Source: an uncultured Eubacteriales bacterium (GTDB taxonomy: Bacteria > Bacillota > Clostridia > Christensenellales > Aristaeellaceae). From it: 64,000 nucleotides of DNA. This document shows positions 1,465 through 19,579 of the stretch, piece after piece. A program made the position numbers and the translations under genes. Location of the stretch: the NCBI GenBank assembly GCA_900542445.1, contig UQNN01000007.1:26399-90398 (forward strand). The letters are read 5' to 3'. How positions within the stretch are numbered: the first letter of the stretch is position 1; each line of letters opens with the position of its first letter. A model generated the notes under the pieces. It was given only the letters and a program-made list of their open reading frames with translations. It did no database searches and had not been told where the DNA came from.

Positions 1465-4400
1465 TTAGTTGAAGCAGTCGCCCTCGTTCATGTTGATACT
1501 GCCGCCCAGAGGCACGCCGAGGTCGTCAAGAATGGTCAATCCGCCGCGACGTCTGTTCTCCGGGTCAACCGGGACAAAGCCGTCGTCAATGCGGTGCGTG
1601 TTGATGACCGTGAAGGTCGTTCCGCGCGTCACGACGCTGGCCGTATAGCCCTCCGGCACGTCGTTTTCCACAACGTCGTAGTCATACGCCTCGCCGTTGT
1701 CGTCAAACATCGGCAGCTGCGTAAGCGTCTGCGTCCAGCGGTTCGCCGCGTTCAGCGTCAGCGTGGTGATCGTCTGTCCGTTTCTCGTCACATCGACCGT
1801 CACGCTCTGCGGACGCAGCTTCTGCGCGTCATTCGCGTCGTTCCACGCCTTGCGCACAATCAGGTCGGTGTACGCCTGCGTCATCGTGTTGACAAACGCC
1901 GCCATATGCCCGGTTCCGGTGATCGCGCCTTCGCTGCCCGTAGAGCTTACGCGCATATCCTGCGCCGCGCGCTCAGTGACGGTGTAGCTCGTGCCGAGCG
2001 GAATGCCGCTGAGCGTGACGCTCTCGCCGTGGCTCAAACGGATGCTCGCCGCGCCGCCGTTAAAGTACAGTCTGCCCGTTTCGCCGCTCGTCCTGGTCGT
2101 GCGCAGCGTTCCGGTAAAGTCTTCGCCGTCCTCAAGCGTCAAGGCGATGTCAAAGACGAACTGCGTATCAGGAATCTCCGCGCCGCCGATGGCTTCAACC
2201 GTCTTGGTGACGGTCAGCGCGCCGTAACCCGGATTGGCGCGCGTGTTGAGGAAGGTTGCGCGTACCGCCGCCGTTTCCACCACGCCGACAGCGCCGGTGC
2301 TCGTGGTCGTGTAGCGATCCGCCGTGTAATCCGCTTCGGAGACCGTGTAGCTCGTGCCGGACGGAATGCCCAGAATCGTGAGCGATCCGCCGCCCGCAAC
2401 GCGAACCCGCGCCGTCACGCCGCCCGCCGCGTTGTCCTCAAAGGCAACCGTGCGGCCGCTCTGCGTGAGATACGTGCCCGCCAAAGCGATATTGTCGTTT
2501 CGGCTCAAGGTAACGGTAAATTCAAACTCGCGCCCGAATTCCGCCGTTCCGCCGTCCAGGTTCTTGACGATTTCAAGGCTTCCGGTGTCGCGCGTGTTCA
2601 CGAAGCGGAGCGTATCGCCCGCGTCGGTCATCACGCCGCCCTGTTCGCCCTGACGGACGACATAGCCCTCGGTCTGATAGCCGTTTTCATCCTCGATCAC
2701 CGTGTAATGGGTATCCACGAGGATATTGCCGATGGTCACACTGCGCTCCTCGCCCGTCGCCGCCGCGCCGTCCGCCATATCCACGGTGACATGCGCTTCG
2801 TCGTAGGTGAAGCCGTTTTCCGTCCGGGTTTCAAGCGTCAGCGCCTTTCCGTTCAGCGTCGGCCGGTTGTCGCCCGTCAGCCGGACGCCATCCTCGCGCC
2901 AGAGCCGCACCGTGAAGCCGAAGCTCGTGCGCACCGCGTTGCTTACGGCCACGCGGTCGTTATAGCCCGTGCCCTCCAGCTTCTTGGTGATTTCCAGCGC
3001 GCCGACATTGCGCGTGTTGGTGAAGACTGCGTCGCCGGTCAGCGCATCCGCGATGGTTCCGGTCACTTCGCTGCCGTTCACCCGGCCGTTCTGCGTCGAA
3101 ACCGTGAGATAATAGCCGTCCTGCGTGTCAAACACCTCGCGCACCGCGTACCGCGTGCCCTTGAGGATGTTTTCCACATTCAGGCTGCCGACGCGCGCCG
3201 CCTCCGTCACCGGGATGGAGAGACTGAGCGTCACCGTATGGTTCTTCGCGTCCACGGTCATGTTCTTCGGGGTCTTGCCATCCACCGTGGGCAGGTTGTT
3301 CGTCTGCGTAAGATCGATCCAATCCGCATAGGTCAGCGTGGCCGAGAAGCTGAATACGGCTCTGCCGTTTTTCTCGAACTTCACCGCGTTGCCGACCGCG
3401 TTCTTGGTTACGCTCAACACGCCGACGTTGCGCTCGTTGGTGAACGCAGCCGCCGCATCCGGCGTCTGGCTGTTGACCGCCGCCGTCTGCGTACTCACCG
3501 CTTCATAGCCTTCCGCGGTGTAGTCGTCCTCGGCTACCGTCGCCGTCGTGCCGTAGAGCACGTCAAGCAGCGTTGCCGTCTGGCCGCCCTTGAGCGTCAG
3601 CACATATTCGCCGTTCGCATCGCGCGCAACGGTCGTCTGCACATCCGCCTTGTTCGCTTCGCGGATGACCACGTCATACGCGTCGCGCTGGGTTGCCGTG
3701 TCGAACCGCGCGTTTTCGAGCTTCACGCGGAACGTGAACTCCTTTTCGCTGTCCGTCGCGTTGCCCTTGAGCGCCTTGCTCAGCGCAAGCGTGCCACTCT
3801 CACGCGTATTCGTGAACGTCATGGCCTCTTCGCGGCCCGCTTCGTTCACCACGTCGATGAGACCGGAAGCGTTCTGCGGCGTCTGGGTCGTGTAGCCGTC
3901 GTCCGTATAGTCGCGTTCGACAATCTCATAGTGCGTATGCGCCGGGATGTTGGTGATGCTCGCGCTCACCGGCCGTCCGTCCGCGCCCATGGTGATGCTC
4001 ACCGTTCCGGCGTAAACGTCGTGCCCGTCGCGCTGCTCGTTCGTCTTTGTCAGACCGTCCACACCGCTGGGCATGGTGCTCGTCTGCGCGTTCAGCAGGT
4101 CGAGGTCGTGTTCATTCCACAGCTTCACGTCAAAGGTGAACGTCTTGCCGTAGCCCTTGTCGCTTCCCGTTCCCGCAAGCGCTTTCGTAATCTCAATCGA
4201 TCCGATATAGCGCTCGTTGGTGAACGCAGCCGCCGCATCCGGCGTCTGGCCGTTGACCGCCGCCGTCTGCGTACTCACCGCTTCATAGCCTTCCGCGGTG
4301 TAGTCGTCCTCGGCTACCGTCGCCGTCGTGCCGTAGAGCACGTCAAGCAGCGTTGCCGTCTGGCCGCCCTTGAGCGTCAGCACATATTCGCCGTTCGCAT

Positions 4401-7400
4401 CGCGCGCAACGGTCGTCTGCACATCCGCCTTGTTCGCTTCGCGGATGACCACGTCATACGCGTCGCGCTGGGTTGCCGTGTCGAACCGCGCGTTTTCGAG
4501 CTTCACGCGGAACGTGAACTCCTTTTCGCTGTCCGTCGCGTTGCCCTTGAGCGCCTTGCTCAGCGCAAGCGTGCCACTCTCACGCGTATTCGTGAACGTC
4601 ATGGCCTCTTCGCGGCCCGCTTCGTTCACCACGTCGATGAGACCGGAAGCGTTCTGCGGCGTCTGGGTCGTGTAGCCGTCGTCCGTATAGTCGCGTTCGA
4701 CAATCTCATAGTGCGTATGCGCCGGGATGTTGGTGATGCTCGCGCTCACCGGCCGTCCGTCCGCGCCCATGGTGATGCTCACCGTTCCGGCGTAAACGTC
4801 GTGCCCGTCGCGCTGCTCGTTCGTCTTTGTCAGACCGTCCACACCGCTGGGCATGGTGCTCGTCTGCGCGTTCAGCAGGTCGAGGTCGTGTTCATTCCAC
4901 AGCTTCACGTCAAAGGTGAACGTCTTGCCGTAGCCCTTGTCGCTTCCCGTTCCCGCAAGCGCTTTCGTAATCTCAATCGATCCGATATAGCGCTCGTTGG
5001 TGAACGTGTAGCCGATGATATTCGGCTTTTCGTTGTTCTCCGTTTGGGTCGTTTTGAGCGTGTAGCCCTCGTCTGCGTGCTTCTCGCTCATCGCTTCCGT
5101 CACGATGATATCCGCGCCGTCCGGAACGTCATCGATCACCGCCGTCTCGCCCTTCTTCAGGGAGATCGTCTGTACGTCCTTCCGTCTGAAATCGATCGTT
5201 GCCGTTTGGCCGTTCACCGTGTAGGTGTACGCGCGGTAAACCGCCGCATCGGACAGCGCATCGTCCTTCTTTTCGATTCTGACGTTAAAGTCAAACGCAT
5301 CGCCCTCGTTGGCCATTTGGCCGAGCACGTTCTTCGTGATGCTCACGCTGTGCGTGTCGCGCACGTTGGTGATCTGAACCGAGGAGGCCGTTTCTTCCGA
5401 AATCGTTCCCTTGTTCTTTTCGGTCGTGCTGCTGTTCCCGTCCGCATAGCTGACGATAAAGCCCATGTCGCGATACGTCTGTTCGTCCTCGACAACGGCA
5501 TAGCTCGTCCCTTTCGGCAGGTCCTCAAAGGTCACGACCTCGCCGTTATGCAGGCTCAGCGTCAGCGTCACCGTCTGGCCGACCCGCTTCTGTTTCACCG
5601 GATACGTGGTCTTTTCGCCCTCGCTCGGCATATTCGAGCGGCCGACGTGGCCGTCCAGCGACACCTTCTCGTTTTCCAGCGTCAGGGTGACGTCATACGT
5701 TTCCGTATCCGCCGCCAGGCCCTTGCCCACGCCCGTGCCCGTCGCGGTCTTGCCGATTTTCAGCTTGCCCGCGCTGCGCACGTTGGTAAACAGCGCCGTC
5801 TGGTTTTCGGCGTCCACAACCCTGTTCGACGTAGACGCGCCAAACTTCATGTCCTCATCGTAATAGGCCGCATAGCCCCACTCCGCGAATCCGTCGTTTT
5901 CGGTTACCGTGTAGCTTGCGCCATAGAGAATGTTGTCAATCGTCACGCTGACGTCGGGTTCCGTCTGCGAAACAGCGATCCGGATGTCCTGAATCGTCAC
6001 CGTGCGGTTTTCAACGGTCATTGGACTGCCCATCGGAACCTTCGGCAGATTGTCCGCGTCGCTCAAATCCACGCCAGCCGGATAGGTGATCGCCGCAGTA
6101 AAGCTGAACTTGCGCTCGCTGATCGGATCTTTGCCTTCGATCTTCTTGCGGATCGCAAGCGAACCGGCGTTGCGGACGTTTTTCAGTTCAACCCTGGCTT
6201 CCTTGTCCGTGGCTATCATACCGCTTCCGCCGGACGTATAGGCGCTTGCGTCGATGTTGTAGCCCTGCGCCCGCTCGTCCGTCTCCTCGACGGTGTAGGC
6301 CGTGCCGACCGGAATCTCTTTGATCGTCACCTTCTGGCCGCCGCGGATCTTCAGCGTCGCTTCGCCGTTCTTCACGGTCAGCGTCGTCTCCGCCGCGCCA
6401 TCCATCGGATAATCGCCATCCACCGGCACAATATCATTGCGGCTGAGTCTGATTTTCACGGTAAACGCGTCGTCGCTCAAAACCGCGTTGCCCGCCGTCG
6501 TCTTGGAAATCGTCAGATCGCGGCGCGCCAGTTCGTTCTTCAAAACGATGCTTCCGTCCTCGCCGTCGGAGATCTCCGCGTTTGGGATCAGATGGCCCTG
6601 TCCGTCGTCTTCAAGCGTCACGGTCACAGTGTACTTCGTCTTGTCGTAGGTCACGCCGTCGAAAGCGGGCGTATCCACCTCTTCAATCTGATAGGTGTAC
6701 GTCATGCCTTCCCAGTCGCGCTGTGTCCAGCCCGTCTCCGGAATGGTCGCGTAGTTCATCGTCAGGTCGAATTTTCCGTTTTCATCCGCCTGCACAAAGA
6801 CCGCGTTCTCCTCGACCGTGACGTTTCCGCCCGCCGCAACGCGTTTGGTCAGGTTCGGGTCATCCGGACTGGTGACCCGGATGCGGAAGAGGTTGGCATA
6901 CCGCTCCAGCTCAACCTGCGTTCCCTTCGCAAAGACCTTCTTCTGCGCCGTGAGCATATACGTGCCCGCCGCGCTGTACAGATCGGTCGCGTCCACGTAA
7001 TAGGTCTTTCGGCTGTCGGCCTTAAAGTCGCCGGGCAGCGTGTTCATGCCTTCCAGCACGAAGCAGCTGTGCTTTTCGCCGTCGATTTCAACCTCGCCGT
7101 GCGGCGCAATGCCCTCCTTTCCGCTGAACGTCGCGCCCGTGCTCAGATACGGCGCGGGAGCGCTCGTTTCAACAACCAGATAGCTGTCCGCATAGGTCAG
7201 ATACGCGCTCTGCGTGCTGACAAAACTGTACACATTGCCGCTCGACGTCATCTCGCCGACCTTCTTCGCCGCCGAAACCGCGGTCAGATTGTCGAGTTCC
7301 TCCGTCGTATATGGGCCGTAAATCGCGAACACCGCATCGGAAACAGCCGCGTTGTTGTCCGCCTCCTTGGTGATTTCAAGGTCGCGCACCGGCACGAGGC

Positions 7401-19367: not shown

Positions 19368-19579
19368 ATCGACATGCCCCTTTCGCCGATCTTTTTTGTC
19401 ATCTTTCCATTGAAAGCCGCATATACTTCCCATAGGGGAAGATATATACCAATTTCTTCTCTATTTTATTCTACCACTCTTCCTTGTTTTTTTCAACTTA
19501 CCAATGCACAAAGGAAACGTTTTAGATCTAATAAAAACGATAGATTTTTCTTTTATCCCGGCTCATATATAACGACGCT

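Follow-up and report, generated by a model that had tools for sequence, protein, structure and literature searches.

A conserved C-terminal tag on giant surface proteins of gut Clostridia and its genetic linkage to an OppA-like substrate-binding protein

Giant isopeptide-domain fibres are major colonization factors, and their anchoring is thought to be understood through the LPXTG motif and sortase. Here, we analyzed a stretch of 64,000 nucleotides (nt) from an uncultured Eubacteriales bacterium of the Christensenellales (contig UQNN01000007.1; the whole stretch is called the window), which encodes a giant adhesin of 5,525 amino acids (aa) without such an anchor. The last 26 residues of the giant (..ILDDLGVPLGGSINMNEGDCFN) form a conserved, unannotated C-terminal tag, and the gene that follows encodes a substrate-binding protein (SBP) related to the oligopeptide-binding protein OppA. 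Comparison across genomes indicates that the conserved core, as judged at the sequence level, is any secreted passenger with the tag together with a dedicated, secreted, transporter-less OppA-like SBP. We give an even chance to the proposal, a purely genomic inference, that the SBP clamps the tail peptide; it is proposed because the sole constant companion of the SBP is a conserved peptide with the length of the ligands of OppA and AppA.

According to the open reading frame (ORF) listing and translation, the genes lie on the minus strand in the order acidic-repeat protein (secreted, 433 aa), giant and SBP, and they likely form a three-gene operon. The elements central to this study are as follows:

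1465..18042, minus strand: giant gene, 5,525 aa; GGAGGA precedes the ATG at 18042, and an alternative first ATG is at 18060
1468..1545, minus strand: C-terminal tag of type B, GGLTILDDLGVPLGGSINMNEGDCFN-COOH, defined from aligned tails; no known family match
1412..1464, minus strand: spacer between giant and SBP genes, 53 nt; no intrinsic terminator detected by scan
1..1411, minus strand: SBP gene, 5' 470 codons, cut by the window edge; Pfam SBP_bac_5, E 5.6e-33; starts 53 nt past the giant stop

The start at 18042 is likelier than that at 18060, since GGAGGA precedes it, and co-transcription of the giant and SBP genes is likely because no terminator was detected in the spacer. The full-length SBP has 683 aa (L001, P0157), and the window gene is 99% identical to P0157. 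An earlier sequence-only reading of this DNA did not consider the SBP gene, which lies just outside the segment that it covered.

That reading had described a 16.6 kb gene for an isopeptide-domain giant with no sortase motif, no cell-wall anchor at the C-terminus and no sortase gene adjacent, and all of this held in our analysis. The giant's C-terminus reads ..GLTILDDLGVPLGGSINMNEGDCFN, with the final residues ..GGSINMNEGDCFN. Its last 100 aa contain neither an LPXTG-like motif nor a hydrophobic stretch and, like the last 48 aa searched on their own, gave no match in Pfam or NCBIfam. A regex scan of all ORF ends in the window found no LPXTG-like pentapeptide within about 35 residues of a C-terminus; the VPLGG in the giant's tail resembles LPXTG only loosely. 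The giant's C-terminus has no hydrophobic membrane-spanning segment with a positively charged tail and no known wall-binding module, and neither a sortase domain nor a TLxTC motif was present in any real ORF of the 64-kb window. The giant lacks each testable defining feature of a sortase substrate. Retention on the cell would require a non-canonical C-terminal signal, a partner protein or both, as had been argued before.

The earlier reading had named a wall-binding domain or LPXTG motif in the last 60 aa, or a frameshifted continuation, as findings that would overturn it, and none of them appeared. Past the giant stop there is a second in-frame stop and then the start of the next gene. In some assemblies, the last 55 aa are called as a separate ORF (P0001), and a real frameshift at the tail was considered and rejected. 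Independent assemblies of the same species from metagenomes break or differ exactly at a repeated GTGCCGGAGGGCTATAC (VPEGYT) motif, and compared with window positions 1600-1700 the lesions are a 1-nt deletion, a TAT>TAG change and scaffold Ns (L002, L003, L005). As the lesions vary among contigs and all fall at the repeated motif, the frameshift is an assembly artefact.

The tag consensus is ..ΦxΦΦ(D/E)(D/E)Φxx-P-L-G-x-G-xΦxΦ-N-x-G-D-C-(F/L)-(E/N/D)-COOH, and the tail in the window fits the pattern P-L-G-x(0,1)-G-x4-N-x-G-D-C-(F/L)-(E/N/D)-COOH seen in tail logos from 37 loci. Two subtypes were distinguished. Type A tails read ..ΦI(D/E)(D/E)Φxx-PLG(L/I)G-xΦxΦ-N(V/A)GDC(F/L)E (for example, ..TPLGLGQVYINVGDCLE), and type B tails, including that in the window, read ..ΦxΦΦ(D/E)xx-VPL(G/A)G-xINMNEGDCF(N/D). 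In eight aligned type B tails, the invariant residues, numbered from the C-terminus, were V-16, P-15, L-14, G-12, N-9, N-7, E-6, G-5, D-4, C-3, F-2 and N-1.

A total of 185,579 species genomes from GTDB were scanned with the degenerate DNA pattern G-x4-N-x-G-D-C-(F/L)-(E/N/D)-stop, with a hydrophobic residue before Asn, which returned 86 stretches. About 57 of them came from Clostridia, Christensenellales or Oscillospiraceae metagenome-assembled genomes, in which the 26-aa C-terminus was strongly conserved; these include Ca. Pullichristensenella, Ca. Limiplasma, Christensenella sp. UBA4379, Ca. Onthenecus and many rumen and gut bins. The rest were chance matches or a separate small ORF of Nostocales. 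This conserved Nostocales ORF has about 25 codons, is rich in Cys and aromatic residues, ends in ..CMGFNG(V/M)N(S/P/A/C)GDCL(D/N) and is probably an unrelated small peptide (L016, L017, L027, L030, L031, L036, L042, L063, L066, L067, L073, L086, L087). Viral contigs contained one chance match to the tail pattern. When the last 140 aa of the giant served as the query, 3 of the best 150 representatives, a ranking swamped by multi-repeat Cna_B proteins, were Cna_B giants that ended in ..PLG(L/I)GxxxxNVGDCLE, and most others ended in xPxTG followed by a transmembrane (TM) helix and K/R.

No NCBIfam model, curated C-terminal sorting-domain models included, matched four tails at E up to 10. Word-indexed protein searches with the tail only and with a five-tail profile returned only fragments from the same species, a 25-aa motif giving such an index too few shared words. 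A literature search on the tail motif, orphan SBPs, sortases, Christensenella and C-terminal sorting found nothing relevant, and no description of the pairing of tag and SBP. The idea that an incomplete Cna_B domain has the tail as its last beta-strand, which would act as a SpyTag-like donor strand, was set aside, as no protein with an incomplete domain turned up as a partner and the linked gene encodes an SBP.

The linkage of tag and SBP was assessed by clustering all ORFs around 49 strictly defined tag-bearing genes. One family of 630-730 aa adjoined the tagged gene in 46 of the 49 loci, on the same strand and with its start 15-150 nt past the tagged-gene stop, and the only other large ORF cluster was the antisense shadow of this family. 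The order differed in L062, where the SBP gene lies upstream of the tagged gene. The SBP was also present at eight further loci with divergent tails, giving at least 54 of about 57 loci. The reverse test agreed with this: each of the five SBP homologues looked up (47-88% identity) is immediately preceded by a giant with the tag, in one case in the divergent form ..IPLHEGYCFD. The other neighbors vary from species to species, and only the pair is conserved. The species of the window alone gave 80 near-identical human-gut contigs, and the cluster of its SBP comprised 4,362 member sequences. No natural fusion of SBP and tail was found among 120 SBP homologues.

This linkage bears on the view that there is no dedicated retention at all, that the giant is a free fibre or matrix component, the SBP a hitch-hiking binder of peptides or nutrients, and the tail an element of folding, stability or export. 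Neither the giant nor the SBP has a recognizable anchor, as free release would have it. However, hitch-hiking does not fit a pair that remains together in about 55 species while the passenger changes completely and all other neighbors vary, and a monoderm cell would have no use for a nutrient-uptake SBP that lacks both lipid anchor and permease. We regard this view as very unlikely.

The partner has both the family 5 SBP domain (Pfam) and a bilobed fold with an inter-lobe cleft (AlphaFold2, AF2, and Foldseek). The family is tight, with 116 columns at least 90% identical among 37 sequences. Its best NCBIfam SBP score was 96.6 bits against a cut-off of 650, and it matched no named equivalog (OppA, DppA, NikA, MppA, Opp4A and others). 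An AF2 model from a 55-sequence alignment reached a mean predicted local distance difference test score (pLDDT) of 88.1 and a predicted TM-score (pTM) of 0.84. The top Foldseek matches were Lactococcus lactis OppA with nonapeptides (E 2e-31) and Bacillus subtilis AppA with a nonapeptide, followed by NikA, MppA and OppA structures, with E-values from 1e-26 to 2e-31. The TM-score to OppA and AppA was 0.75-0.78 when normalized to target length, and the identity to solved structures was 13-17%. The SBP is confidently predicted to have the fold of OppA proteins that bind long peptides.

The features that define a component of an ABC importer, namely adjacent permease and ATPase genes and, in monoderms, a lipid anchor, are missing. 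The signal peptides of the SBPs have AxA signal peptidase I sites, and a lipobox was found in none of 46 homologues. At the neighborhoods examined, no permease operon of the OppBCDF type adjoined the SBP gene; in L181, unrelated sugar-type permease genes lie downstream. Past about residue 645, the SBP continues as an acidic linker of about 40 aa with a hydrophobic end (..DDFEIIE, ..GEIIILD, ..GGIIIID), which AF2 leaves disordered. This C-terminus (residues 645-683 of P0157; 46 homologues among L011-L094) resembles two parts of the passenger tag, the ΦΦΦ(D/E)(D/E) element and the Φ-Φ-(D/E)-COOH terminus. In P0174, P0175, P0184 and P0188, an extra C-terminal domain of about 110 aa takes the place of the acidic linker.

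An OppA-like protein next to one conserved peptide might also point to signalling, with the tail as a pro-peptide from which a protease frees the last ~11 residues as a pheromone-like peptide, and the SBP as a PrgZ-like receptor that feeds a general Opp permease encoded elsewhere. Dedicated OppA-like receptors for a single gene-encoded peptide are known, PrgZ (for cCF10) is among the sequence matches, and the tail length suits binding proteins of the OppA type. SBP genes without a permease of their own also exist, as in the pneumococcal AliB-like proteins, which likewise speaks for signalling. On the other hand, the SBPs of Gram-positive importers are lipid-anchored and those studied here have no lipobox, precursors of 1,000-5,500 aa with unrelated architectures would be odd for a pheromone, and no regulator or permease is conserved nearby. 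In addition, conservation reaches 15 residues upstream of any plausible released peptide. We consider signalling quite unlikely.

The SBP clades track the two tail subtypes. Identity was at least 52% among SBPs paired with type B tails and did not exceed 49% between these and the SBPs of type A tails. At SBP position 55, which falls in an N-terminal VGNxTKVSGxFF motif of high conservation, all type B SBPs have Lys and those of type A have Ala or Pro, and position -6 of the tail is Glu in type B and Val or Ala in type A. This pattern of complementary charge between K55 and E-6 is a lead and not proof. The tail Cys is invariant, and Cys360 of the SBP (F-x-C-E) is present in 35 of 37 aligned sequences, with no other SBP Cys comparably conserved.

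The proteins that carry the tag differ completely in architecture, and the tail is therefore a modular tag and not the end of one family. Tagged passengers were built from DUF7507/DUF11/Big_2/MucBP (L038), Beta_helix_3 (L062), SpaA-like (L050) or FctA and Cna_B (L054) domains, and Cna_B arrays with an N-terminal TM-sortase domain also bear the tag (P0051, P0099, L061, L090). In L050, two tagged proteins (3-2624 and 2886-5858, both on the plus strand) stand in tandem ahead of a single SBP gene, so that one SBP can serve more than one passenger. Their tails, ..IPLAGYAAMNEGDCYN and ..VPLAGYINMNEGDCFN, show that Tyr is tolerated at tail position -2. Similarly, a tagged sortase and a tagged pilin-like protein precede one SBP in L054. 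This 275-aa sortase ends in ..FVLSAGDCLE and has no PLGxG, so that the invariant core of the tag is the terminal N-x-G-D-C-Φ-E.

The tagged sortases occur either alone (L054:4722-5549, minus strand, 275 aa) or after 3-18 Cna_B domains (L061:3493-7422, plus strand; L090:238-2277, plus strand; P0051; P0099). In L061 and L007, the tagged sortase is part of a pilus-like cluster that includes a signal peptidase S26 gene, along with LPXTG-type pilin-like genes in L061 and a DUF7601-like protein in L007. P0027, P0030, P0033 and P0070 are Cna_B giants of 2,240-6,904 aa that end in a sortase-like domain (..TLLTCEDERAEGGYASRR..) and have no sorting signal, a mirror image of the N-terminal sortase fusions with a GDCLE tail.

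The repeated presence of sortase domains fused to the tag (P0051, P0099, L061, L090) or beside it (the 275-aa sortase of L054), together with the S26 genes of the pilus-like clusters L061 and L007, favors an account in which the tag is the substrate motif of a sortase-like or other transpeptidase. The (V/T/I)-P-L-G-x-G segment would be a degenerate LPXTG at which the enzyme cuts and joins, the final attachment would be covalent, and the role of the SBP would be limited to gripping the short peptide that leaves from the C-terminus, in place of the missing TM retention segment. VPLGG and TPLGLG do have Pro at position 2 and Gly at position 5 of LPXTG, and a (D/E)xxΦPL(A/G) element also stands just ahead of LPXTG-type motifs in many Clostridial giants. 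But a sortase is absent from the window and from the surroundings of most loci, the part of the tag that never varies is its extreme C-terminus, and the tagged sortase of L054 has no PLGxG at all. We know of no sortase that acts on a substrate that is not retained in the membrane, which also counts against this account, and we judge it unlikely.

Under the clamp that we propose, the passenger and the SBP would both be exported by Sec, and the lobes of the SBP would close on the final ~11 tag residues (xΦxΦNxGDCΦE/N), like lactococcal OppA on nonapeptides. The remainder of the passenger would leave the cleft via the PLGxG turn, and the tail Cys and the apparently unpaired SBP Cys (F-x-C-E) might lock the complex by a disulfide or a shared metal. 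At the C-terminus of the fibre, the complex would act as attachment or cap in place of the LPXTG/sortase link. Physical binding, the roles of the Cys residues and a function of the complex in retention or capping are all inferred.

Several points weigh against this proposal. Clamping alone does not explain retention, since no anchor is evident in the SBP itself, which has a signal peptidase I signal and neither a TM segment nor a lipobox. A count of about one module in each genome is not typical of a general sorting pathway. With only two clades, shared ancestry alone can yield both the clade tracking and the K55/E-6 pattern, and Cys360 may be ancestral and not tag-specific, because the closest solved relative (OppA, 9p48) has the aligned Cys. 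Finally, no SBP gene adjoined the tagged gene in P0099, where an integrase gene follows, or in L065 and L079, which are short or odd contigs in which absence was judged within the DNA covered; the locus L021 is truncated by the end of its DNA block.

The place of the complex on the fibre may also differ from that of a wall anchor. As the sortase-fusion passengers are N-terminally membrane-anchored, the SBP would sit at the distal end of the Cna_B stalk, and the complex of tail and SBP may be a cap or tip and not an anchor. Taken broadly, our tentative reading, to which we give slightly less than even weight, is a hitherto unrecognized, sortase-independent attachment or capping of Gram-positive surface proteins in which a soluble tag would be caught, possibly with a Cys-Cys or metal lock, by a dedicated, non-transport, Venus-flytrap OppA-like protein. 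Under this tentative reading, the system would occur widely among the Christensenellales and Oscillospirales that live in human and ruminant guts, and would serve adhesin giants and stalked sortases alike.

The remaining features of the giant are as follows, with residue numbers of its domains counted from the Met at 18060:

17953..18042, minus strand: signal peptide MEKMNHLKRVMAWVMTAAMLVSSCPTTAIA|EE, with an AxA signal peptidase I site and a lipobox-like LVSSC
16375..17952, minus strand: N-terminal region of about 530 aa; no Pfam or NCBIfam match, and self-profiles do not reach it
13999..16374, minus strand: first array of Cna_B/SpaA/DUF7601-like domains, residues 563-1354 (Pfam and self-profiles)
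6949..12549, minus strand: central region of about 1,870 aa, residues 1838-3704; no family assigned, a DUF11-type repeat only below threshold
1582..6948, minus strand: C-terminal array of about 15 tandem DUF7601/DUF5979/FctA domains, the last being one Cna_B (Pfam and self-profiles)

Pfam assigned 12 stretches to DUF7601/DUF5979, three to SpaA, two to Cna_B and one to FctA, with E-values of 2.7e-156 for DUF7601, 6.9e-34 for SpaA, 5.5e-21 for Cna_B and 4.5e-10 for FctA. Self-profile searches gave about 23 Ig-like isopeptide-type domains at residues 563-1354, 1723-1837 and 3705-5493, and residues 1-562 and 1838-3704 had no family match by Pfam, NCBIfam or self-profiles. The count of more than 20 Cna-B/SpaA-type domains given earlier is therefore roughly right at the superfamily level, although most of the domains are DUF7601 and not Cna_B. 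With tandem Ig-like Pfam domains behind a Sec signal peptide, the membership feature of isopeptide-domain fibrillar adhesins, the giant passenger appears to be an ordinary member of this class, and its N-terminal ~530 aa are presumed to be a functional (binding) head. The C-terminal array contains a perfect 753-bp direct duplication (4252-5004 = 3472-4224; 0 mismatches, 780-bp period) of a two-domain DUF7601 unit; either the event is very recent or the assembly produced it.

The processing route of the giant's signal peptide is ambiguous, because both the AxA site and the lipobox-like LVSSC are present. Within the signal peptide, LVSSC (17971-17985) is located six residues ahead of the signal peptidase I cleavage point AIA|EE. 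Its use would place a lipid at the N-terminus of the giant and leave the tag at the distal end. This motif is not conserved in other tagged proteins (L038, L050, L062), and the N-termini of tagged proteins elsewhere are either ordinary signal peptidase I signals or TM anchors.

Upstream of the giant lies the acidic-repeat protein:

18066..19367, minus strand: acidic protein gene, 1,302 bp including the stop, 433 aa; ATG at 19367 with an aaagggg ribosome-binding site upstream
18069..18308, minus strand: Ig-like C-terminal domain of the acidic protein, about 80 residues, W..W....G..F..V.GA....Y.V......YWR.VV
19468..19496, minus strand: promoter-like site TTGAAA-17-TG-TAGAAT, lying about 100 nt ahead of the acidic gene; consensus match only
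19817-19859: terminator of the gene preceding the acidic gene

A 1,302-bp gene for a signal-peptide protein with E/P/T repeats just ahead of the giant had been noted earlier and was confirmed, with an intergenic gap to the giant of 23 nt when counted from the ATG at 18042. The protein has the signal peptide MKNKRRIFAWMLCLVLLGAASPMRVNA|ED, and its mature form contains 22% E, 9.6% T and 8.1% P, with a 155-aa block that is 77% E/P/T and consists of EEPEATEEPEVV-type repeats. The C-terminal half is all-beta; its single-sequence AF2 model had a pLDDT of 48.6, which is insufficient for a fold search. The protein matched neither Pfam nor NCBIfam families, and no wall-binding or membrane-anchor module was found in it.

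This protein had been named as the obvious candidate partner of the giant, with the two genes as a module, and it might retain the giant as a wall-associated polyanion or by binding to one of the two termini of the giant. Its gene is co-oriented with the giant 23 nt upstream, likely shares its promoter, and no terminator precedes the SBP gene. Moreover, a homologous Ig-like domain ends the gene directly upstream of the tagged gene in L038 (tblastn E 4e-5) and in L052 (a 204-aa protein, BLASTP E 8e-6). Only this domain, and only at these two loci, has relatives upstream of tagged proteins elsewhere. However, the searches run detected no acidic-repeat relative outside the species, and the protein upstream of P0099 (496 aa) showed no similarity to the acidic protein. 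In other loci the upstream gene encodes a tagged protein (L050), a sortase (L054), pilins and S26 (L061) or the SBP (L062), and the acidic protein itself has no anchoring module. The two-gene module is not conserved, the kept unit being the tag and the gene downstream of the giant, and the notion of the acidic protein as the retention partner did not gain support; we hold it to be very unlikely. It may instead be a lineage-specific accessory co-transcribed with the giant/SBP pair.

The neighbors of the locus are ordinary chromosomal genes, including recA, cinA, pgsA, ispDF, trkAH, two-component systems, ABC-2 exporters and a MiaB/RimO-like radical-SAM methylthiotransferase gene. A plus-strand match to all 12 of the 12 sigma-70 consensus positions, TTGACA-17-TATAAT, was located at 19624-19652, on the strand opposite to the operon and facing the hairpin at 19817-19859, with no obvious gene downstream. 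Between 40000 and 46000, the guanine-cytosine content of the window was 0.49-0.52, compared with about 0.60 elsewhere; this segment encodes AI-2E and CNNM transporters as well as a DUF4118 histidine kinase/response regulator pair, and may have been acquired.

Compared with the known LPXTG/sortase isopeptide adhesins (Cna, the SpaA/FctA pilins and MSCRAMM-like 'periscope' giants), the giant shares the Sec signal, an N-terminal head and an Ig-like array, and its short C-terminal signal likewise follows a (D/E)xxΦPL(A/G) element. Unlike them, it has a 26-aa acidic, Cys-containing tag and an adjoining binding protein, with no hydrophobic segment and no positive end. The OppA-type cluster C SBPs, such as L. 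lactis OppA and B. subtilis AppA, bind peptides of nine residues and longer in extended form, and the SBP studied here shares SBP_bac_5 and the fold with them. In contrast to these, it has neither a lipobox nor an adjoining OppBCDF, carries an acidic extension of about 40 aa, and adjoins the carrier of one specific C-terminal peptide. PrgZ (pCF10) and the pneumococcal AliB-like proteins are OppA homologues for particular gene-encoded peptides that are encoded away from the permease, as is this SBP. However, they are lipoproteins that feed an importer and their ligands are free peptides of 7-8 aa, whereas the candidate ligand here is the C-terminus of a protein of up to 5,500 aa.

The logic of a short C-terminal tag on unrelated secreted proteins plus one partner family is the same as in PEP-CTERM/exosortase, GlyGly-CTERM/rhombosortase and PGF-CTERM/archaeosortase. 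In those systems the tags have a TM helix, and the partners are membrane proteases or transpeptidases with many substrates per genome, whereas the present tag is soluble and pairs with a binding protein whose gene adjoins those of its substrates, of which a genome has one or two. Cohesin-dockerin and SpyTag/SpyCatcher also attach varied passengers in a modular, non-enzymatic manner by a small C-terminal module; they have no relation to this pair in sequence or fold, the receptor here being a Venus flytrap, and a covalent bond here is speculation only. We see the pairing as a C-terminal tag system built from known parts, and that it amounts to a categorically new attachment mechanism is possible, at a little under an even chance.

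These results suggest that abundant, mostly uncultured gut Clostridia use a different C-terminal device on their giant fibres. If the physical clamp is true, a family of transport proteins would have been recruited as a structural receptor, and there would be an annotation rule for hundreds of 'ABC transporter substrate-binding proteins' and 'hypothetical' giants. The tag and the SBP could serve protein engineering as a compact natural peptide/receptor pair, and the retention of LPXTG-less adhesins becomes directly testable with one peptide and one soluble protein.

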